Source of the DNA: Candidatus Micrarchaeia archaeon | GTDB taxonomy: Archaea > Micrarchaeota > Micrarchaeia > CABMEP01 | Assembly: GCA_038886535.1 (NCBI GenBank) | Contig: JAVZXS010000002.1 | Location: forward strand, 6,673 to 70,672 | DNA length: 64,000 nt | Direction: 5' to 3' | Shown here: positions 46,377-61,633 of the stretch, piece by piece | How the letters are laid out: every line of letters starts with the position of its first letter | Numbering within the stretch: the stretch's first letter is position 1 | Translations under genes and position numbers: made by a program | Notes under the pieces: generated by a model | What the model was told of the DNA's origin: nothing | Databases searched by the model: none | The model's input: only the letters and a program-made list of their open reading frames with translations

Positions 46377-47333
46377 TCATTCATTTGCAAAATCGATAAT
46401 TCTTTCTAATGATTCTTGTGGTGTTTCAATTGTATTAAGGAAGATGATGTCACATTTCTGAAGTAATCTTTCATATGCGCTTTTTCTTACTTCAGTCTTC
46501 CAGCTATTTTTTTGTAGCCAGTGTGGATTAAAGAAATCATTATTTACTAAATGCTTTAGTGCTTCTTTTACAGTTAATCTTGTAACAACAGGCTTATTCA
46601 TCTCTCTCCTTAGGATTATGAATTTATTTATATCAACAGAATCAGCTATTTTTTCTTTCCCTACAACCTTTGAAAGATTAAGTATAGCTCTTTCTTTATT
46701 ATCTATCTTTGCAAACCTCATTATATCTTTATATTCTTTCCAACTTTTGCTGAGGTCGGCTCTAATATATGTATTTTTTTCACTTCTGTATCCCATTGCT
46801 GTTCCATTTATGAACTTAAAATAAAACCAATCATCAGCTACTATCTTTGTATTTTGTTTTGTCAAAAGCCCATAGCTTAATGTTGTTTTTCCAGTTCCTG
46901 AAGGGCCTAGGATGCAAGTTCCATTCCCATTTACATTTAGTAATGCTGCATGGGCTGAAAATATATTATGGTTATCCTCTAATACATCTCCTATAAGTGC
47001 TAATGCAACTGATTTTAGCCATCCATAGTAATCATTATTTTTGAAGAAAGCAGTTCTTGATTTAGGGTCATATTGTACAGTTGGAATTCCTTTAGCAGCA
47101 GATCCAGATTCGATTGATAATAGCTTTGCATGCGATCTTATTCCTTCATCAATGAAAAACCAGTTTTCATCCCATTGGTCTTCCCATTCTTCGCTATCAG
47201 AATAGAAATGAAGGCATGCTCCACTTATGTTTGCCTTTCTTTCAAAAATTATGGAAGGAATGTACTTTTTGTATATTCTTTCCTTTTCATCTATGCTTAT
47301 TATTTTTTTAACATATTTAGATTTAGTAGACAT
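46377..47333 (-). CDS. P-loop protein resembling the HPr-kinase C-terminal (HprK-related kinase) fold
   Basis: AALLNVNGNGTCILGPSGTGKTTLSYGLL...IVADDWFYF parallels HprK (G.G.LI.G.SG.GKS...L.......L..DD). Confidence 0.4.
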   Translation of the reverse strand: MSTKSKYVKKIISIDEKERIYKKYIPSIIFERKANISGACLHFYSDSEEWEDQWDENWFFIDEGIRSHAKLLSIESGSAAKGIPTVQYDPKSRTAFFKNNDYYGWLKSVALALIGDVLEDNHNIFSAHAALLNVNGNGTCILGPSGTGKTTLSYGLLTKQNTKIVADDWFYFKFINGTAMGYRSEKNTYIRADLSKSWKEYKDIMRFAKIDNKERAILNLSKVVGKEKIADSVDINKFIILRREMNKPVVTRLTVKEALKHLVNNDFFNPHWLQKNSWKTEVRKSAYERLLQKCDIIFLNTIETPQESLERIIDFANE

Positions 47334-47444: not shown

Positions 47445-47801
47445 ATGAAGAAATTAGGAGTATTGATGGCATTATTTCTTTTAGGAACATTGGTTTTTGC
47501 ACAGACCGGTTCATCAACAGAAGCAAGTACAAAGCTTAAATCCGTTCTTAGAACTGTTTGTGATCTTTCTGCAGGACTTTTAGGTCCAATAGCATTTGTA
47601 CTTATTGTTCTTGCAGGAGTAGTATATGCAGGCAGTCAATTCTTTGGAGCTGAAGCTAGAGCAACAGGTTCAAAATGGGCAATGACAATGATAACTGGAG
47701 CAATAGTAGCATTCTTGCTATGGATTATAGGTCCAATGATAATTTCTGCATTCGGTGGTGGCAGCTACCAGATCGGTTCAAGTGCATGCTCTGGTTTCTG
47801 A
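47445..47801 (+). CDS. VirB2/TrbC-like pilin paralog 1
   Basis: Sec signal peptide ending VFAQ. Mature part is a Ser/Thr-rich N-terminus, then helix 1 (LLGPIAFVLIVLAGVVYAG), the loop SQFFGAEARATGSKW, and helix 2 (AMTMITGAIVAFLLWIIGPMII). Exactly 2 Cys in the mature region. Confidence 0.6.
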   Translation: MKKLGVLMALFLLGTLVFAQTGSSTEASTKLKSVLRTVCDLSAGLLGPIAFVLIVLAGVVYAGSQFFGAEARATGSKWAMTMITGAIVAFLLWIIGPMIISAFGGGSYQIGSSACSGF

Positions 47802-47832
47802 TTGATAATATTTTTTCTTTTAGTTGATTGCC

Positions 47833-48237
47833 ATGTCAGATGCAAGGACTAGATTTAAAGGTCATTCAAAGAAATCAAAAAGCAATTCAACCTTATATTG
47901 GCTAGTCTTTGCTGTTTCTTTTATTTTTATTATTTCATTTTCGTTTGCACAGACCATCGGTTCTACACAGGCGTCAGACAAACTTAAAAAAACACTTTGC
48001 GATCTTTACAAAGATCTTAATTCAGTAATTCCAACTGTCGCATTTGTTCTCTTTGTTCTTGCAGGAGTTGCATATGCAGGAGGTCAATTCTTTGGAGCAG
48101 AAACAAGAGCAAAGTCAATATCCTGGTCAATGTCAATGGTGACTGGTGCAGTAGTTGGATTATTAATTGTTCAGGTTGCGTCCGTTCTTATTTCAAATCT
48201 TTCAGGTTATCAATTAAAGGACATTTGTCCTGTTTAA
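47833..48237 (+). CDS. VirB2/TrbC-like pilin paralog 2, with a long basic n-region on the signal peptide
   Basis: Signal ends ...SFSFAQ. Core is VIPTVAFVLFVLAGVAYAGGQFFGAETRAKSISWSMSMVTGAVVGLLIV. 2 Cys (TLCDL, DICPV). Confidence 0.6.
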   Translation: MSDARTRFKGHSKKSKSNSTLYWLVFAVSFIFIISFSFAQTIGSTQASDKLKKTLCDLYKDLNSVIPTVAFVLFVLAGVAYAGGQFFGAETRAKSISWSMSMVTGAVVGLLIVQVASVLISNLSGYQLKDICPV

Positions 48238-48312
48238 ATAGTCAATATTTAAATTTTAAATATCTAACATCTTTTTAAATTTTTATTTATAATTTGTTAG
48301 TAAGGTGTTTAA

Positions 48313-48672
48313 ATGAAAATCAATATCTTAATGTCAATAGCCTTTATGTTATTATTGTTTTCGTTCTCATTTGCACAGGGAACTTCTGATGTTACAGAAA
48401 GGTTAGTAGTGGGATTGAATGATGTATGTGTTCAATTGACACAGATTCTTCCTATAATTGCTATTGTATTGTTTGTACTTGCAGCAGTAATTTATGGAAT
48501 TGGTCATATATTTGGTGCAGAGATGAAATCAAAGGCCACAGGCTGGGCTACTTCTATGGTTGTTGGAGCAGTTATCTCGCTTCTAATATTCTTGTTGGCA
48601 AGACCTATTCTAGGCATTTTTATTCCAGAGATATCCACCTCTGACTTCTGCACAGAAAGATTCTATCCATAA
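48313..48672 (+). CDS. VirB2/TrbC-like pilin paralog 3
   Basis: Signal ends ...SFSFAQ. Core is ILPIIAIVLFVLAAVIYGIGHIFGAEMKSKATGWATSMVVGAVISLLIF. 2 Cys (DVCVQ, DFCTE). Confidence 0.6.
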   Translation: MKINILMSIAFMLLLFSFSFAQGTSDVTERLVVGLNDVCVQLTQILPIIAIVLFVLAAVIYGIGHIFGAEMKSKATGWATSMVVGAVISLLIFLLARPILGIFIPEISTSDFCTERFYP

Positions 48673-48769: not shown

Positions 48770-49591
48770 ATGGCACTCGGATTTACTACTAGACAAATGG
48801 CTTATGGGGCGATAGGAGTTTCCATATTAGTTTTCTTAATAATGGCAACACTTCCAGGGGGAAGTACTTTACAATTCATCATGGCAGGTTTGTCTTTATT
48901 TACTGCAGTATTGTCATTTATTCTTTGGAAATACGGATATTGGATGGTTCCATTCATAACAAAGAGGCTTAACATAATTGAAGTACATGATGGGCAATGG
49001 GAAACCACTCCAGCACAGGATGCAATAGTTAAAAAGATAGGAGATGAATATTATGCATCTGTTTTTCTTCACATTAAGATGTACAAATCTACAACAGAAA
49101 GATCTCAAGAAGAAAACATGGTTTTCATAGATTCATTTGAAAGAGCAATTGCAAACATAAAATATCCAGTAAAGATTGCAACACTTCTTTATGCTAAGGA
49201 CATAGCAAAATACAGAGAGGATATTGAGACAAAGAAATATGAAGCGCAATTAAAGCTTCAGAGAGAAAGAGAAAAATCAGAGCCCGATGTTTTGGCATTA
49301 GATAGATTGGAAAAGGAAGTAGCAATGTATGAGGCAGAGTTAAACAGAATCATTTCTGGAGAAAGGCCAATGGGATTGATTTCATATGCAATGACAACTG
49401 GGGTTGGAGTTACAAAAGATGCAGCAGTTGCAGTAGCAAAGAATCAGGCAGCTGAAATAAAGACATTGCTTGCAAACGCCCTTAATGTAGAGGTATCATA
49501 TTTGTATGGAGAAGATATGATGAAGTGTTATGATCTTGAACACATGGTTCCTCCAACAATAAAGGCATTGAAAGATTTTGTTGAGGCATAG
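48770..49591 (+). CDS. VirB3-like TM hairpin fused to a VirB4 N-terminal-like domain (hypothesis)
   Basis: N-terminus LGFTTRQMAYGAIGV plus two TM helices recalls the VirB3/TrbD entry motif (..TRP....GV). It is followed by a ~200-aa soluble domain with a coiled segment. Sits immediately upstream of the VirB4-type P-loop ORF. Confidence 0.4.
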   Translation: MALGFTTRQMAYGAIGVSILVFLIMATLPGGSTLQFIMAGLSLFTAVLSFILWKYGYWMVPFITKRLNIIEVHDGQWETTPAQDAIVKKIGDEYYASVFLHIKMYKSTTERSQEENMVFIDSFERAIANIKYPVKIATLLYAKDIAKYREDIETKKYEAQLKLQREREKSEPDVLALDRLEKEVAMYEAELNRIISGERPMGLISYAMTTGVGVTKDAAVAVAKNQAAEIKTLLANALNVEVSYLYGEDMMKCYDLEHMVPPTIKALKDFVEA

Positions 49592-49622
49592 TTTGGTAAA
49601 TTATTTTTTTATTGGTGAATAA

Positions 49623-51194
49623 ATGGGTGATTTAAAGATAAACGATGTTCAGAATACGGATATAGGAAGAAGAACAATCATTGTCAGCCCACCAGAGCCA
49701 CCCGCAGAATATCTAATGGGCGATCCTAAGGATTCAATATATTTAGGAAGAACAGCTGTTTTTAATGTTCCTTTCTATTGGAATTTCAAGAGATTAACAA
49801 ATCCACATATCGCAATAACAGGAATCACTGGTTCTGGTAAATCCTATTTGATAAAGACATTTCTCCTCAGGGCAGCACTAGTATGGAATGCAAATGCAAT
49901 CATCATCGACTGGGCTGGAGAATATAAGGCATGGGTTAAACAAGTCAATGGGGTTGTAGTAGCTCTTGGAAGAGGTTCTTATCTAAATCTTTTAGACCTT
50001 GGAGGCATGAAGCCTTCAGATAGGATAAAACAAGTAATAAGATCACTTGAAATACTTACTGATATAGGTCAATATCCAGAACAAAGGAGACTTATAGAAG
50101 AAGCGATAGAAAAGGCATATTTGAATGCAGGATTTAAGCTTTCAGAAAAGGATCAGAGAGATGCATTAGGCAATCCTCTAAGGCCGCCTACTCTTAAAGA
50201 CGTTCAAAAAATTCTACAACAAATGCTTGAGACAGGGACATATGAGTTTCCTGCAGAACTTCAGAATGCTATTTATAAGATAAAGAAGTTTACTCTTGAA
50301 GGTGATGATTATTTTGCAGAACAGTCTACTATAGATCTTGACAAACTTCTTACATCTGGTCTTGTTGCAATCGATCTCTCGGGATTGCCAGACGAAACTT
50401 TCCGTGCGCTTGCAGCTCTTACCATTCTTCAATTCATAAAAGAAAAGATGAGAATGGAAGGATGGAAGCCAGAGAAGGGAATAAAACTTTTTGTTGTGCT
50501 GGACGAAGCTTGGAAAATTTCGAAGGATGAGAATAGCGATGCAGTTATGATTGTAAGAGAAGGAAGAAAGTATCAATTTGCACTGATAGTTGCATCACAG
50601 ACTCCAACAGATATAAGTGAGGTAATATTCAGCAATGTAGGGACTGTAATTATGTTAAGATTAAAGTTTGAAAAGTATCTCGATTATTTGCAAAATTCAT
50701 TGAGGTTTAGTAATTATATAAGACAACAGATTTTGGGATTTGGAGTTGGGCAAGCTGCGATTTCTATGGCTTATGAGCAAACCACTCCATTCAGCGAAAC
50801 ATTCATACTTAAGAAGATTGACGGTGAAGAGCCAATAGTTGATTACTTCATCGATATTCTATCTGTGCTGACAGAAGCACAAAGAAGGGATGAGACAATG
50901 CCAAAGAGTTTTTCAATGGAAAGAACAGCATTCAAGAAGAGATTGAGAGAAATGGGACTTAGCGATCAAAGAGTAGAGGAGATATCTACACTAATTGAAA
51001 AGAAGGCAAAGCACATCGATGCAATAGAATTCGTGATAGAGCTTGAAAGAAGCGGAGTAAACAGGAAAACAATTACAATGTTCTTCAGAGAGCTTGGAAT
51101 TGATGATAGTACTATTATAAACATATTTACAAGAGCAGATCAGAAAAAGACAGGAGCAGGAGAAAGAGAATTAACTCAAATAACATTAGAATGA
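49623..51194 (+). CDS. VirB4/TrbE/CedB-type (DUF87-like) secretion ATPase, C-terminal P-loop domain, plus a helical C-terminal extension
   Basis: Walker A NPHIAITGITGSGKSYL. IIIDWAGEY. SYLNLLDL. PTLKDVQKIL. Walker B LFVVLDEAWK. REGRKYQFALIVASQTPTDI. About 110 aa of extra helical repeats at the C-terminus. Confidence 0.75.
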   Translation: MGDLKINDVQNTDIGRRTIIVSPPEPPAEYLMGDPKDSIYLGRTAVFNVPFYWNFKRLTNPHIAITGITGSGKSYLIKTFLLRAALVWNANAIIIDWAGEYKAWVKQVNGVVVALGRGSYLNLLDLGGMKPSDRIKQVIRSLEILTDIGQYPEQRRLIEEAIEKAYLNAGFKLSEKDQRDALGNPLRPPTLKDVQKILQQMLETGTYEFPAELQNAIYKIKKFTLEGDDYFAEQSTIDLDKLLTSGLVAIDLSGLPDETFRALAALTILQFIKEKMRMEGWKPEKGIKLFVVLDEAWKISKDENSDAVMIVREGRKYQFALIVASQTPTDISEVIFSNVGTVIMLRLKFEKYLDYLQNSLRFSNYIRQQILGFGVGQAAISMAYEQTTPFSETFILKKIDGEEPIVDYFIDILSVLTEAQRRDETMPKSFSMERTAFKKRLREMGLSDQRVEEISTLIEKKAKHIDAIEFVIELERSGVNRKTITMFFRELGIDDSTIINIFTRADQKKTGAGERELTQITLE

Positions 51195-51697: not shown

Positions 51698-52444
51698 ATG
51701 GTTTCATTTGACAAGAAAGATCAACAGGTTTCATCAAGAGAACCATTCATCGAGGGATTTAGGATAGAAGCAAAGATGCTCAAAGGAACTCAGGAAATAA
51801 TAGATGCACTTTCGCCATTGCAGTTCTTAGACATAGTAGAAACAAAAACAGGAATAGCAGCAATTAATGTCGAGAGAAGAGACATTCAAAAGAATCCATA
51901 TCTCTTTTCCATAATCTATCTCAATCCAGATTGTATAGAGATAATATACAGCTATAACCCAGATGAGAGCCCAAAGAAAAGAAGATTAGAAATACTTCGC
52001 TACTTTTTGAATATTGTAACTCTTCTTGAGAATGTTTATTTCATTAATCACAAACAGCTTTATCAGGTTGTTGACAACTTCATGTCACGTCTTTTGGAAT
52101 ATACCTCTTCTACCTATGAGGAGCTTTTCTCAAAATATGATTCAGTAAAGGAAGAGTGCGACAGGATAAAGAAGCAGCTTGCAGAGGTAACAGCTGCAAA
52201 TGAAAGCCTCAGGAAATCAAACATGGAGCTGAAGGAGCAGCAGAATCAATTGATGCTTAGGATAAAGGAACTCGAGATGGTTTCAGATGATGTTCTCATC
52301 TCAAGAATACAGACATGGTTGGATGAACATAATTATGAGATAAACATTTCTGATTTCGCTAGAATAAATAAGGTCAGTGAGCAAAGAGTAGAAGAGATAC
52401 TTAATAAAATGGTAAGAGAAGGATATTTAATACAGAGAGAATAA
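51698..52444 (+). CDS. Cytoplasmic protein with an N-domain, coiled coil and C-terminal winged-HTH-like domain
   Basis: Heptad-rich segment (KEECDRIKKQLAEVTAANESLRKSNMELKEQQNQLMLRIKELE), then ISDFARINKVSEQRVEEILNKMVREGYLIQ. The start abuts the previous stop. Confidence 0.5.
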   Translation: MVSFDKKDQQVSSREPFIEGFRIEAKMLKGTQEIIDALSPLQFLDIVETKTGIAAINVERRDIQKNPYLFSIIYLNPDCIEIIYSYNPDESPKKRRLEILRYFLNIVTLLENVYFINHKQLYQVVDNFMSRLLEYTSSTYEELFSKYDSVKEECDRIKKQLAEVTAANESLRKSNMELKEQQNQLMLRIKELEMVSDDVLISRIQTWLDEHNYEINISDFARINKVSEQRVEEILNKMVREGYLIQRE

Positions 52445-52492: not shown

Positions 52493-55114
52493 ATGCAAGA
52501 TGAGAAAAATCAAACAAATCAAAGAAAATTTGCAAAGGTACATAGGGCAGTATACAAGTTTAATATTAGAAGGATGTTCATACCTATCAAGAGATTTATA
52601 AAAAAGACAAATGAATTCACCCCACAGATGATCTTGGATTCATTATCATCTTTATTCAAGCCAAAGGAGAAGTATGGTGAGAAAAAAGAACTCAAGCCAA
52701 TGAAACCAGTAAAGGCAATGCCTTCTCCTATAATGAATTTCATAATTGTATTCCTTTTATGCCTGTTGGCGATCGGAGGATATTTTCTTTTCATTTATTA
52801 CACTGGTCCTTCAGAGCCTGTGACTCCTCCGGTAACAGAAATACCAAAACCAACTCTTTCAGTAAATGTATTGAGCTCAGGCTATCTTGATTCTTCTTTT
52901 GACAAGACAAGATGGTTTGCCTTAGTTGAAATTTCTTCCCAGAATGCTACAAACATAAGCTTGGATATGGTTATTCAGCAGAATCCCATCCCAAATGATG
53001 TTTATATATTAAGAGTTCCAAACTACCAATTTGCATCAAACTATCCTCAGTTCTATTCTGTTCTGAAGAACAAGCTTGAGAAGAAAGGATTGTATCTTTC
53101 AGAAATAACTATAGATGAACTTGTCTCTTTGCCATCCACAAGAAAAATAATTTTAGTGGTTCCTTCAGGCTATCTCCCAGCTGTATTTGTTGGGGAGGAA
53201 TATGCAAATTTCACTCTAAAAAGCTTTGTTGAAAATGGAAATGTTGTAATCTACATAGGTTACAAACCAACAGACAGCATTCTTTATTCCAATTCTCCAA
53301 ACCCGCAGCCATTATCTCTAGATAAGATAGCAAGCTGGCAGCTTTCATTTGATCAAGCTACAGATCAGCCATCATTCTTCTCGTTCAGGAATCCATTGTA
53401 TTCTGTAAAGGCAGTAGGAAGTACATCAACCCGTCCAGCAGTAACAGGAGAACCTGGCGGTTTCTCTGTTAAGTGGGGTGGAGATGGGTTTGCATATTTT
53501 ATACCAACCACAATAGATTTCTGGTGGCAATTTTCAGGTGAGAAGTCTGCAGAGGAGCTTGCAGATGCGATAGTAAATGGAAAATGGGGCTATGGTCTTT
53601 CAAGAATACAGAAAACCATTCCTGTGAATGGTTCCATAAACAAGCAGATAATCATATTCAGCTCGCAATTTAAATTCCCGGACAGCACAAGGGTTTCAAG
53701 ATCTTATGGGAAGCTTTATGTTCAATCCCTGAATCAGGTAGAGAACCTAACTGAAATCAATGGTATTTCTCTTCCTGTCAGATTTCCAACCAGGCCGAAT
53801 GGCATTTTGATGCATGATGATGTAGCATTAAATTCAATCATAACTGGAAATCCTCTTGAGATAAAGTACTCTTTAAACGAAAATACAACTGAATTAAGAC
53901 AGCTTTATTTATCTGCCATATCAGAAAACAATGAAGAAATTTTATTCACGCCTATAACTGCTGCTCCAGTACCTCTTAAGCTTTCAAATGCAGTATATAG
54001 ATTTGATAACAGGCTTCCGCAAGGCAATTATATATTAAGAATAACAGATGACAGGCGAAACGTTTATGCACAATCATATCTTTCAATGGCATCTTTCAAT
54101 ATCGAACCTTACATCACAGATTTCATATCTGGCAATTATATCTTTAATGTATATTTCTCATCAACAGGTGAGCAATACACCTCTGATTTGAAGAATGTGG
54201 TTGTCTCAGTTGATGATGGAGACAAAAAGACACTCGAGGTAAGACAGGGTAGAATTTTATATAACGCCACTCCTATTACTGTGCCTGGTGTTCATATATT
54301 TAAATTTGAATTCGGGCCGGATACAATTATTCTTCCAGTAACTTACACAAGACCTGTTTCTATGTTTGAGAGGCCAGAAAACATAGCAATGGGAATAATC
54401 GCAATACTTCTCTTTGCAATCGGGTATTTGATTTCAAGACCAGAGGCAGTAAAATATTCAATAGATGTTCCAGATTTCCCACCCTTACAATCAATAGCAG
54501 TTCCAATAAAAAGAGAAAAAATATTGGACATGTTTGATTCGATAAATGCTGATCTTAAATGGAAATATACTCCACTTACAATCAATGATCTAAAGATGGG
54601 ATTCAAGAAGATAATGTTCAGAGGAAAACCTCTTCTTGTTGGCGATTACAATCTTGAAATGGTTCTTGACAAGCTTAAGGAAGAGGGATATGTTGTCCAG
54701 TCAATGGATTATTATGGATTAAAAAGATGGGAGAAGGAAACAAGAAAATCAATTTATTACCTTGCTCTTGTTAGGGCTCTTAGGGATGTGTTTGTAACAG
54801 AGGGAATTCCATTCCTTCAATTTGGACAGAGGGGAGATGCAGATACAGTACTAAGCTACGGTGGAGAAAAGGTATATATTCACATTTATGAATCTGATGC
54901 AGTTATAAAGAAGGCAATTCAAACTTCCTCTTTCGGAAGAACAATTATTGTTTTTGAGAATGAAACAGTGATGAATGATTTCCTATCCAGAATTCATACT
55001 CCGAGCCAGCAAAACGTAGTATTCAAATTGCTCCTTGACAACGGAAAGATAAGCGTTGCTCCAATAACAAGTTTCATGGATGTTCTGACAAAGAAAAAAA
55101 TATTTACTTACTAA
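52493..55114 (+). CDS. 873-aa bitopic membrane protein: short basic N-tail, TM, ~520-aa extracellular domain, TM, ~230-aa cytoplasmic domain
   Basis: TM helices IMNFIIVFLLCLLAIGGYFLFIYY and IAMGIIAILLFAIGYLI. The C-domain contains a wHTH-like segment, LEMVLDKLKEEGYVVQS. No family recognised. Confidence 0.6.
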   Translation: MQDEKNQTNQRKFAKVHRAVYKFNIRRMFIPIKRFIKKTNEFTPQMILDSLSSLFKPKEKYGEKKELKPMKPVKAMPSPIMNFIIVFLLCLLAIGGYFLFIYYTGPSEPVTPPVTEIPKPTLSVNVLSSGYLDSSFDKTRWFALVEISSQNATNISLDMVIQQNPIPNDVYILRVPNYQFASNYPQFYSVLKNKLEKKGLYLSEITIDELVSLPSTRKIILVVPSGYLPAVFVGEEYANFTLKSFVENGNVVIYIGYKPTDSILYSNSPNPQPLSLDKIASWQLSFDQATDQPSFFSFRNPLYSVKAVGSTSTRPAVTGEPGGFSVKWGGDGFAYFIPTTIDFWWQFSGEKSAEELADAIVNGKWGYGLSRIQKTIPVNGSINKQIIIFSSQFKFPDSTRVSRSYGKLYVQSLNQVENLTEINGISLPVRFPTRPNGILMHDDVALNSIITGNPLEIKYSLNENTTELRQLYLSAISENNEEILFTPITAAPVPLKLSNAVYRFDNRLPQGNYILRITDDRRNVYAQSYLSMASFNIEPYITDFISGNYIFNVYFSSTGEQYTSDLKNVVVSVDDGDKKTLEVRQGRILYNATPITVPGVHIFKFEFGPDTIILPVTYTRPVSMFERPENIAMGIIAILLFAIGYLISRPEAVKYSIDVPDFPPLQSIAVPIKREKILDMFDSINADLKWKYTPLTINDLKMGFKKIMFRGKPLLVGDYNLEMVLDKLKEEGYVVQSMDYYGLKRWEKETRKSIYYLALVRALRDVFVTEGIPFLQFGQRGDADTVLSYGGEKVYIHIYESDAVIKKAIQTSSFGRTIIVFENETVMNDFLSRIHTPSQQNVVFKLLLDNGKISVAPITSFMDVLTKKKIFTY

Positions 55115-60831: not shown

Positions 60832-61188
60832 ATGAGAAAATTATTTACTATTGTTTTTTTGTCATTAATTTTTAGTATAGTATTTGCACAGTCAACAACA
60901 TCCACTACAAGTTCGTCAAGTGAAAAAATTAAAGATGCTATTTGTGCAGTTTATGATTTATTAAATGGTTTGCTTCCAGTTATAGCATTTGTTCTCTTTG
61001 TTCTTGCTGGTGTTGCATATGCAGCAGGAAATTTCTTTGGAGCTGAGATGAGGGCAAAGGCAACAGGCTGGGCAATGAATATGATAACTGGAGCAATAAT
61101 TGCATTGATTTTGTCTGCAGTAGGCCCATCGATATTAAGTTATCTCTATCAAGGTGAAGGCAGTATAAATGCAGATTTATGTTCTTAA
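60832..61188 (+). CDS. VirB2/TrbC-like pilin paralog 4 (satellite copy)
   Basis: Signal ends ...SIVFAQ. Core is LLPVIAFVLFVLAGVAYAAGNFFGAEMRAKATGWAMNMITGAIIALIL, nearly identical to paralogs 1-3. 2 Cys (AICAV, DLCS). Confidence 0.6.
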   Translation: MRKLFTIVFLSLIFSIVFAQSTTSTTSSSSEKIKDAICAVYDLLNGLLPVIAFVLFVLAGVAYAAGNFFGAEMRAKATGWAMNMITGAIIALILSAVGPSILSYLYQGEGSINADLCS

Positions 61189-61213
61189 GCATGATTTTGT
61201 AAGGTGATTTGAT

Positions 61214-61633
61214 ATGGCATTTTCAAAGCAACAGGTAGGATATTTTGCATTCATCGCAGGACTTTTTGTAGCTGCATTTGTTGCAGTTGCATATCCAGCA
61301 TTAATGCCGATCCATGTTTACTCATTAGGACTTCTCGGTATAATAATAGGATTGCTTAACATAGAAGCAAGAGAGGTATGGCCATACATCCTAGCAGCAG
61401 TTGCATTTCTTGTTGCATCAACAACATTCATGCAGACTATTGATGCATTGCCTGTAGTAAATCTTCTTCTTGAAAGATTCCTTAATGCATTGATATACAT
61501 TGTAGGGCCAGGTGTATTTGTAGTCTCATTAAGAATAATATACGAGGCAGCAAAGTCAAGAGAATCTCTTCCACACCCATTGAAAGAAGAAAAAACTGTC
61601 ACAAAGAAAGCTGAAAAGAAAAGAAAAAGATAA
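61214..61633 (+). CDS. Small 4-TM membrane protein with a Lys-rich tail
   Basis: Hydrophobic helices throughout. Starts 25 nt after pilin paralog 4. Confidence 0.5.
   Translation: MAFSKQQVGYFAFIAGLFVAAFVAVAYPALMPIHVYSLGLLGIIIGLLNIEAREVWPYILAAVAFLVASTTFMQTIDALPVVNLLLERFLNALIYIVGPGVFVVSLRIIYEAAKSRESLPHPLKEEKTVTKKAEKKRKR

Follow-up and report, generated by a model that had tools for sequence, protein, structure and literature searches.

Whether a motor ATPase of the VirB4 type can be encoded by two genes, one for a membrane-anchored portion and one for the P-loop ATPase, is a question raised by two adjacent genes of a Micrarchaeota (DPANN) archaeon, whose products comprise 273 and 523 amino acids (aa). 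They lie in a stretch of 64,000 nucleotides (nt) of Candidatus Micrarchaeia archaeon (GenBank assembly GCA_038886535.1, contig JAVZXS010000002.1), hereafter referred to as the window. The window is chromosomal and comes from a metagenome-assembled genome (MAG) whose bin amounts to 1.14 Mb in 40 contigs and is 88% complete; its GC content is ~34%, it carries an intron-containing tRNA, its flanks hold housekeeping genes (IspH, RadA, GatDE and a glycosyltransferase), and close relatives of the genome are 'Candidatus Micrarchaeia' MAGs from hot springs. An earlier interpretation made from the letters of the window (hereafter the sequence-only reading) had proposed a partition of VirB4 that reverses the one known from bacterial VirB3-VirB4 fusions, in which the first open reading frame (ORF) supplies a VirB3-like segment and the VirB4 N-terminal domain and the second supplies the VirB4 C-terminal domain (CTD) followed by a novel helical extension. 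The two genes are interpreted here as encoding a bipartite motor of the VirB4/CedB type, part of a stripped-down, chromosomally encoded machine for type IV secretion or a Ced-like pilus that is conserved across the Micrarchaeota, an interpretation to which we assign a probability of about 0.6.

The 523-aa protein is, as judged from its profile matches and its predicted structure, a P-loop ATPase corresponding to the CTD of VirB4 only. Its ORF begins at the first start codon past an in-frame stop and therefore cannot conceal an N-terminal domain upstream of the Walker A motif, which already occupies residues 67-74. The curated models that recognise the protein cover the ATPase half only (positions 251-537 of 590 for CedB, and from about position 420 for VirB4/TraC), the ~400-aa N-terminal domain of VirB4 is not on this chain, and the corresponding Pfam model, PF03135, has no match anywhere in the genome. 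The sequence-only reading was thus correct in describing an ATPase devoid of this domain. All the catalytic residues are invariant in 39 orthologs, and residues 34-396 align with residues 382-750 of the two full-length VirB4/TraC proteins that the same genome encodes (hhalign 98.5%, E 1.7e-15). In Foldseek searches with the AlphaFold2 model (predicted local distance difference test, pLDDT, 82), the best superposition was obtained with the isolated VirB4 CTD of Thermoanaerobacter (4ag5; template-modelling (TM) score 0.80 normalised to the target, root-mean-square deviation 3.8 A, ~400 columns).

The scores of the ATPase against the curated models of whole proteins fall below their thresholds, at 49.4 bits against a cut-off of 643 for TIGR00929, 55 against 567 for TraC-F, 85.3 against 700 for CedB (NF041017) and 73.6 against 600 for CedD (NF053655). 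In sequence the protein is equally close to CedB (85 bits) and to defence-type HerA (82 bits), which weighs against a secretion motor and brings in another explanation, namely that the ATPase belongs to the HerA type employed in DNA repair or anti-phage defence, its neighbours being effectors or sensors and the pilin genes coincidental. The protein shares with the HerA of the HerA-NurA repair system and of the Sir2-HerA and DUF4297-HerA defence systems the P-loop core of the FtsK-HerA superfamily and the DUF87 assignment; the PADLOC models of HerA and DndH match it at 82 bits (9.4e-24) and 57 bits, respectively, its top phmmer matches in PDB are defence HerA proteins, and radA is located 1.3 kb upstream of the pilin genes and 2.6 kb from the 273-aa gene. 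However, the HerA models match the ATPase core only, with no HAS-barrel N-domain; NurA, Sir2, DUF4297 or any other nuclease or effector is missing, and the partner genes have no PADLOC match. The model also superposes on the DndH C-domain, and HerA chains give target-normalised TM scores of 0.33-0.53, lower than that of the VirB4 CTD, which is the best global match. Moreover, the partner of the ATPase is a membrane protein, pilin genes recur beside paralogous modules, the module is retained almost throughout a phylum whose genomes measure ~1 Mb, a distribution atypical for defence islands, and radA is linked in just 8 of 51 loci. That the protein is a HerA-type ATPase of repair or defence is, in our judgement, improbable. 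Conserved linkage to radA as a hint of DNA import was likewise rejected on this count of loci.

The 273-aa protein was modelled (pLDDT 78) as a membrane hairpin of two helices, at residues 7-27 and 34-67, and then an alpha/beta domain of ~200 aa into which a coiled-coil hairpin is inserted at residues 145-195, and this agrees with the two transmembrane helices and the soluble domain of the sequence-only reading. Positive residues flank the hairpin on its N- and C-terminal sides, and the soluble domain is for this reason presumed to be cytoplasmic. The conserved motif is not found at the N-terminus; the VirB3-like motif perceived there in the sequence-only reading is not conserved in an alignment of 69 family members, whereas a juxtamembrane motif following the second helix, K54-x-G56-Y57-x3-P61-x2-T64, is invariant or near-invariant in 41 orthologs. 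The two transmembrane helices ahead of the soluble domain, that is topology and position, are the sole resemblance to VirB3 or TrsC. Both proteins of the pair are strongly conserved, with mean column identities of 58% for the 273-aa protein and 66% for the ATPase. Within the low-confidence N-terminal tail of the ATPase, R17 is invariant besides P23-P-E-P-P27, and this tail may be a peptide by which the ATPase docks onto the anchor subunit.

The relationship of the soluble domain to the N-terminal domain of VirB4 was assessed by fold and profile comparisons. When the model of the 273-aa protein was compared with 350,542 PDB chains using Foldseek, the first seven places were all occupied by TrwK, the VirB4 protein of R388 (E 6.6e-3 to 4.8e-2, probability 0.80-0.97); these count as a single match, since all seven come from one protein, present in four of the library's 174,310 entries. 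That VirB4 should head the fold matches of this model is very unlikely to be due to chance, given that the query gene adjoins a gene for a VirB4 CTD. The second line of evidence concerns TrsD, which has been reported to be distantly homologous to the N-terminus of VirB4 and which pairs with VirB4 in Patescibacteria (PMC12102498). A TrsD profile was built from pSK41 TrsD and seven diverse homologs, each encoded directly upstream of the VirB4-type ATPase of its plasmid (annotated as DUF87 in five). The 69-member profile of the 273-aa family matched it with an hhalign score of 23.1 (E 0.013; residues 131-255 against TrsD 91-212), a value reached by none of 300 block-shuffled TrsD alignments (mean 13.8, standard deviation 2.5, maximum 22.9) and about as strong as that of the accepted pair of TrsD and the VirB4/TraC N-domain, which score 26-27 with the same shallow alignments. 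Under relaxed settings the alignment is collinear over the whole domain (residues 50-266 against TrsD 12-223), the domain lengths are equal, and a C-terminal motif (ALNVEVSYLYGEDMMKCY / HYGLETRPIYQTEYLNQF / DAHIKTKILNGQELTSLL) stands in the same register across all three pairwise alignments. The soluble domain thus probably corresponds, in a TrsD-like form, to the first subdomain, of ~200 residues, of the N-terminal domain of VirB4. The domain matches only these first ~200 of ~400 residues, and the second N-subdomain has no counterpart in either protein.

Several observations weigh against this relationship and, with it, against a divided VirB4. The TrwK match has an E-value of only about 7e-3 and a TM score of 0.29 normalised to the whole query, the aligned range of TrwK not being reported, and the hhalign probability of the TrsD match is 3.4%. 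The 273-aa protein belongs to no Pfam or NCBIfam family; it is matched by neither the CagE_TrbE_VirB nor the TraC_F_IV model of Pfam, nor by the VirB3 model PF05101 at E <0.1, and it was never matched when the PF03135, CedB, CedD and TrsD models were run over the genome at E-values up to 10. The comparison of the family with the N-domains of the VirB4/TraC proteins of its own genome gave an hhalign probability below 1%, inside the shuffle null. Similarly, scans of 69 family members against Pfam and NCBIfam gave nothing consistent (TraC_F_IV in 2 of 69, at E 0.029), sequence and profile searches of PDB with the 273-aa protein gave chance-level matches only, and a Hidden Markov Model of the own-genome VirB4/TraC N-domain had no significant match among all 273-like proteins. 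The TrsD model (NF041427) matches the N-domain of the full-length VirB4 of the genome (E 0.005) and not the 273-aa ORF at E-values up to 10.

These results are what would be expected if the 273-aa protein were a lineage-specific membrane adaptor unrelated to VirB3, TrsD or the VirB4 N-domain, and the ATPase a minimal motor of the DUF87/HerA-VirB4 kind natively devoid of an N-domain, the two never having formed one gene; the pair would then work like a tethered VirB4 and yet not be a split one. The absence of matches to curated models of VirB4-N, TrsD, CedB/CedD-N or VirB3, the hhalign scores inside the null for the VirB4/TraC N-domains and the lack of any fusion (see below) favour it, and so do the generic alpha/beta folds, such as YbjN and the type III chaperones, that rank just under VirB4 in the Foldseek list. 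It accounts poorly for VirB4 being the top fold match of a protein encoded beside a VirB4 CTD, which is unlikely by chance, and for a TrsD match that exceeds all 300 shuffles, is collinear and of equal length, and is accompanied by the gene order of trsD-trsE. We regard such an unrelated adaptor as possible, though clearly less probable than a motor divided into two subunits related to parts of VirB4. The partition put forward by the sequence-only reading accordingly stands as far as the split itself is concerned, with a weak TrwK fold match and a weak TrsD profile match for its N-domain portion, and lacks support in sequence for its VirB3 portion.

Linkage of the two genes was examined in GTDB species genomes, which supplied 80 related loci. 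In 78 of these the ATPase gene comes next after the 273-like gene on the same strand, one of the two exceptions being cut by a contig end, and the co-occurrence of the two orthologs that the partition supposes is therefore observed. In the 78 loci the spacer between the genes varies between -1 and 214 nt with a median of 12 nt, and each of the three relative frames is represented (33, 26 and 19 loci); on the latter ground the idea that the two ORFs are joined by a programmed frameshift or by read-through was rejected. A profile search of 1.84 billion representative proteins yielded 197 relatives, the longest of 466 aa, and none was a fused form of the 273-aa protein and the ATPase. Orthologs in the form of one polypeptide, for which the sequence-only reading had suggested looking, were thus not encountered, a result that also weighs against a divided VirB4; with no fused ortholog, fission of a VirB4 gene and two genes that were never fused are indistinguishable.

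The same data bear on the suspicion that the split is an artefact of assembly or annotation, or a recent pseudogenising frameshift of one gene, which might be entertained for a window taken from a MAG of 40 contigs and 88% completeness, the more so as the ATPase itself is broken into two ORFs in the loci L021, L042, L044 and L082. Those internal breaks, which fall at differing positions and are likely to be frameshifts, assembly errors or pseudogenes, are unlike the conserved boundary between anchor and ATPase. The recurrence of the same two ORFs, with starts of their own, in 78 independent assemblies, the GGTGA box before the ATPase start in the window, the variable spacers and frames, the lack of a fused form among the 1.84 billion representative proteins and the strong conservation of both proteins render an artefact hardly credible.

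The 273-aa family occurs in ~88% of the Micrarchaeota genomes sampled (177 of 201, and 134 of the 152 of high quality), and many genomes carry two or three paralogs. Among the modules fetched from second or third loci, 17 of 18 keep the arrangement of pilin .. 273-like gene, N-domain-less ATPase of 350-517 aa and p248-like gene, which means that the pairing was passed on as whole modules were duplicated. In two complete genomes, which form an exception, the main ATPase lies at a distance from a tandem pair of 273-like genes (135 kb in G042 and 22 kb in G033); this speaks against a strict unit of two genes, and adjacency is therefore usual and not obligatory. Tandem anchor paralogs also stand ahead of the ATPase in several families (G016:C1:695150-696759, G038:C1:470157-471752, G100:C1:651633-653276, G103:C1:42089-43727 and others) and recall the CedB/CedD pair with its complementary partial N-domains.

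The genome in addition encodes two full-length VirB4/TraC-like ATPases of 804 and 868 aa, with a TraC_F_IV N-domain and a P-loop_TraG domain (contig C8, 13541-15955, and contig C7, 19079-21685, both on the minus strand; loci L098 and L097). As two ordinary full-length genes coexist with it, the two-gene system constitutes a distinct lineage. Both full-length genes lie in long single-strand gene arrays and are each followed by an ORF of 553-567 aa; the arrays look like integrated or plasmid-borne conjugative elements, or are possibly mis-binned contigs. Two orthologs of the N-domain-less ATPase in other Micrarchaeota MAGs hold large inteins with Intein_splicing and LAGLIDADG domains (L024:799-4320 and L087:2665-5826), one inserted in the Walker A P-loop (~640 aa, profile positions 66-75) and the other at Walker B (~516 aa, position ~291).

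The C-terminal extension of the ATPase noted in the sequence-only reading is real, residues ~424-523 being conserved in all orthologs with 100% coverage, and it is a separable module and not simply a novel tail. Its model (pLDDT 82-91 for residues 430-510) consists of two short strands (429-433 and 464-466) and six helices (including 434-443, 448-460, 467-476, 481-491 and 495-510) with three helix-Gly-turn-helix units, for which helix-turn-helix-like repeats, as suggested earlier, are one possible reading. A free ORF of 98 aa, which begins at a conserved M-A-K-S and matches positions 426-522 of the ATPase profile, directly follows the ATPase gene in other families and in some 10 of the 80 orthologous loci, the ATPase retaining its fused copy; one paralogous locus combines an ATPase without the module and a free module ORF. 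Many other Micrarchaeota have such a free module gene, of 98-106 aa, immediately behind the ATPase gene, usually besides the fused copy; examples are located at L046:3435-3731, L059:9423-9719, L072:9338-9634, L093:9502-9798, L113:8368-8688, L116:8038-8334 and L102:3791-4087. No fold has been assigned to the module, because its profile gave weak and mutually inconsistent matches only in Pfam and PDB (an EF-hand pair at 3e-6, the helix-hairpin-helix of topoisomerase V at 1e-3 and designed helical proteins), and the calcium ligands are absent from the EF-hand-pair match. In TrwK the C-terminal tail is auto-inhibitory; regulation or docking may therefore reasonably be attributed to the module, and so may DNA binding.

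The features of the locus are collected in Table 1. On the plus strand three pilin genes (47445-48672 in all) are followed by the genes for the 273-aa protein, the ATPase, p160, p248 and p873, and the last five form the conserved core of the orthologous operon.

Table 1. Positions in the window of the putative two-subunit motor, its domains and motifs, and neighbouring genes
Feature	Position	Strand	Evidence
VirB2/TrbC-like pilin paralog 1, 118 aa	47445..47801	+	Pfam T4SS_pilin 4e-06 (over cut-off), TrbC 8.5e-04
VirB2/TrbC-like pilin paralog 2, 137 aa	47824..48237	+	Pfam TrbC 1.5e-06 (over cut-off); NCBIfam TrwL pilin 8.5e-06
VirB2/TrbC-like pilin paralog 3, 119 aa	48313..48672	+	Pfam TrbC 5e-05, T4SS_pilin 9e-04
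Putative membrane-anchor subunit, 273 aa: transmembrane hairpin and presumed cytoplasmic, probably TrsD/VirB4-N-like domain	48770..49591	+	AlphaFold2, Foldseek; no Pfam/NCBIfam family
Two transmembrane helices (aa 7-27, 34-~55) and juxtamembrane motif K54-x-G56-Y57-x3-P61-x2-T64	48788..48970	+	AlphaFold2; conserved columns, 41 orthologs
Region aa 131-255 of the 273-aa protein, aligned to TrsD 91-212	49160..49534	+	hhalign score 23.1, E 0.013
Intergenic spacer of 31 nt, GGTGA Shine-Dalgarno-like box 4 nt before the ATPase ATG, T7 run	49592..49622	+	read directly
Putative VirB4-CTD/CedB-like P-loop ATPase subunit, 523 aa	49623..51194	+	Pfam DUF87, AAA_10, P-loop_TraG; NCBIfam CedB 3.7e-24
Invariant P23-P24-E25-P26-P27 in low-confidence N-terminal tail of the ATPase	49689..49703	+	invariant columns; pLDDT <60 for aa 1-20
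Walker A GITGSGKS, aa 67-74	49821..49844	+	sequence; G67, G70, G72, K73, S74 invariant
Walker B FVVLDE, aa 290-295	50490..50507	+	sequence; D294, E295 invariant
Separable C-terminal helical module, aa 424-523, three helix-Gly-turn-helix units	50892..51191	+	AlphaFold2; free 98-aa ORF elsewhere
Operon partner p160, two transmembrane helices	51214..51696	+	downstream in 70/71 related loci; no Pfam/NCBIfam family
Operon partner p248, coiled coil and winged-helix-like C-terminal end	51698..52444	+	68/69 related loci, also beside paralogous ATPases; weak EAP30/MarR_2 matches
Operon partner p873, large bitopic membrane protein	52493..55114	+	57/59 related loci; no Pfam/NCBIfam family
HprK-C-like P-loop protein, between radA and the pilins	46377..47333	-	Pfam Hpr_kinase_C 1.9e-08
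Fourth VirB2-like pilin paralog, followed by a gene for a 139-aa protein	60832..61633		Pfam T4SS_pilin 1.5e-07

Two aspects of this layout weigh against a pilus or secretion machine. Of 66 orthologous loci only 11 have pilin genes directly upstream, and no polytopic channel of the VirB6/TrbL/CedA kind was recognised in the operon. Pilin genes also adjoin paralogous modules in other genomes. The fourth pilin paralog in the window lies 5.7 kb 3' of the operon and is followed by a gene for a 139-aa protein without a family match, which could be a candidate small channel component, since the main operon showed no VirB6/CedA-like gene. The HprK-C-like gene is linked to the operon in close relatives only (8 of 57 loci). 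Transcription in archaea can be terminated by oligo-T, and the run of seven T at 49604-49610, between the anchor and the ATPase genes, might tune the ratio of anchor to ATPase or equally be due to chance at 34% GC.

The closest analogues of the pair are TrsC-TrsD-TrsE and CedB/CedD; the split is real but not unprecedented, and the reverse partition of the sequence-only reading has precedents in TrsC-TrsD-TrsE of pGO1/pSK41 and of Patescibacteria (PMC12102498) and in the partial N-domains of CedB/CedD (PMC11868833). In the pGO1 subclass of MPF_FATA, to which pGO1 and pSK41 belong, one or more VirB2-like genes, a small membrane protein with an N-domain-like protein, and a DUF87/VirB4 ATPase follow one another in the gene order seen here; the order in pSK41 is trsB (VirB2-like), trsC, trsD and trsE (encoding a 672-aa DUF87 protein), and seven other plasmids show the same order of trsD and ATPase. 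TrsD is a stand-alone protein of ~200 aa, a relative of the first part of the N-domain of VirB4, and is encoded immediately upstream of the ATPase (PMC12102498), its profile matches that of the 273-aa family weakly and collinearly, and the TrsD-VirB4 pairs of Patescibacteria are, like the present one, chromosomal and kept in reduced symbiont genomes. The two systems differ in that the transmembrane hairpin and the TrsD-like domain form one polypeptide here, whereas TrsC and TrsD are separate, and in that TrsE keeps the second part of the N-domain, aligning to VirB4 models from about position 170-265, whereas the Micrarchaeota ATPase has none of it. In addition, the NCBIfam TrsD model does not match the 273-aa protein, the Micrarchaeota operon contains no relaxase, coupling protein or VirB6/TrbL-like gene, and the system is archaeal and chromosomal with a C-terminal helical module.

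The Sulfolobales Ced system and TedB of the Ted system resemble the present one in being archaeal, chromosomal and derived from type IV secretion systems with VirB2-like pilins, and CedB is the top-scoring curated model for the ATPase, although its 85 bits are far below the cut-off of 700. CedB and CedD combine transmembrane helices, a partial VirB4-like N-domain and a HerA/VirB4-like ATPase, recognisable VirB3 and VirB8 being absent (PMC11868833, PMC9905601); these three parts form one chain in CedB/CedD, whereas in Micrarchaeota the transmembrane helices with the N-domain and the ATPase are encoded by separate genes. The N-terminal part of CedB is matched by neither the ATPase nor the 273-aa ORF (E up to 10), no CedA/VirB6-like channel has been identified here, and p160, p248 and p873 have no Ced counterparts. 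DNA import has been demonstrated for Ced, whereas a transfer function of the Micrarchaeota system is putative. VirB3 with VirB4 (TrwM and TrwK of R388) and the VirB3-VirB4 fusions offer a further comparison, the two-helix anchor, the N-domain and the RecA-like CTD following one another here in the linear order of the fusions, with TrwK as the top fold match of the 273-aa model and a common fold of the CTD. The break, however, separates N-domain from CTD rather than VirB3 from VirB4, the ~385-aa N-domain of TrwK (residues 15-400, PMC9259494) is represented over about half of its length only, and no VirB3 or CagE_TrbE_VirB model is matched. The Micrarchaeota system, which would work like a tethered VirB4 and stays below the curated thresholds for VirB4, CedB/CedD, TrsD and VirB3, is distinguished from Trs and Ced by a hairpin fused to a TrsD-like domain, an ATPase without any N-domain and an added separable C-terminal module. 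A search of the available literature found no description of this system in Micrarchaeota, and the papers on ARM-1 name no such genes.

The domain make-up of the two proteins, the linkage of their genes, their conservation and the fold and profile similarities are observed. From the bipartite motor favoured here we infer a complex of the two subunits, its stoichiometry, its substrate and the direction of transport, and a mechanism may be sketched on this basis. The 273-aa subunit would be seated in the membrane through its helical hairpin, with both termini inside, and would expose its ~200-aa TrsD-equivalent domain to the cytoplasm, and the 523-aa subunit would be a soluble and presumably hexameric ATPase of the VirB4-CTD type. 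The former may recruit the hexamer and position it at the cytoplasmic face of the membrane, at the base of a VirB2-like pilus, a role that in bacteria is filled by VirB3 and the VirB4 N-domain within, or next to, one polypeptide. VirB4 drives the extraction and polymerisation of pilins. Hydrolysis of ATP by the 523-aa subunit would power these processes and/or the transfer of DNA or macromolecules as in Ced. CedB and CedD drive such transfer (PMC11868833, PMC9905601), and in R388 the N-domain of VirB4 brings about dimerisation and is in contact with VirB3 and VirB6 as well as the VirB8 tails (PMC9259494). The C-terminal module may act as an autonomous adaptor or regulatory unit that binds its free paralog, p248 or nucleic acid, and p160, p248 and p873 may be lineage-specific parts of the same machine.

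DPANN archaea are host-dependent, and to our knowledge the molecular machines at their cell-cell interface are almost unknown. A conjugation-derived motor in ~88% of the sampled Micrarchaeota genomes of ~1 Mb, often in two or three copies and with inteins in its catalytic motifs in some lineages, is therefore a concrete candidate for the transfer of DNA or macromolecules. More tentatively, and at odds that we would put no higher than those of an unrelated adaptor, the motor, its three orphan partners and the pilins might exchange DNA or macromolecules with Thermoplasmatales or Sulfolobales hosts or among Micrarchaeota, might be as important for episymbiosis as type IV secretion systems are for Patescibacteria, and might represent a third archaeal derivative of these systems beside Ced and Ted, with a motor assembled from separate N-domain and ATPase subunits. 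The pair would also provide a natural experiment, in which a TrsD-like N-subdomain of VirB4 forms a membrane-anchored subunit of its own and the second N-subdomain is absent, and which would help define the parts of VirB4 needed for membrane coupling as against ATPase function. It would thereby link the bacterial TrsD, the crenarchaeal CedB/CedD and the DPANN systems, which have until now been treated separately.

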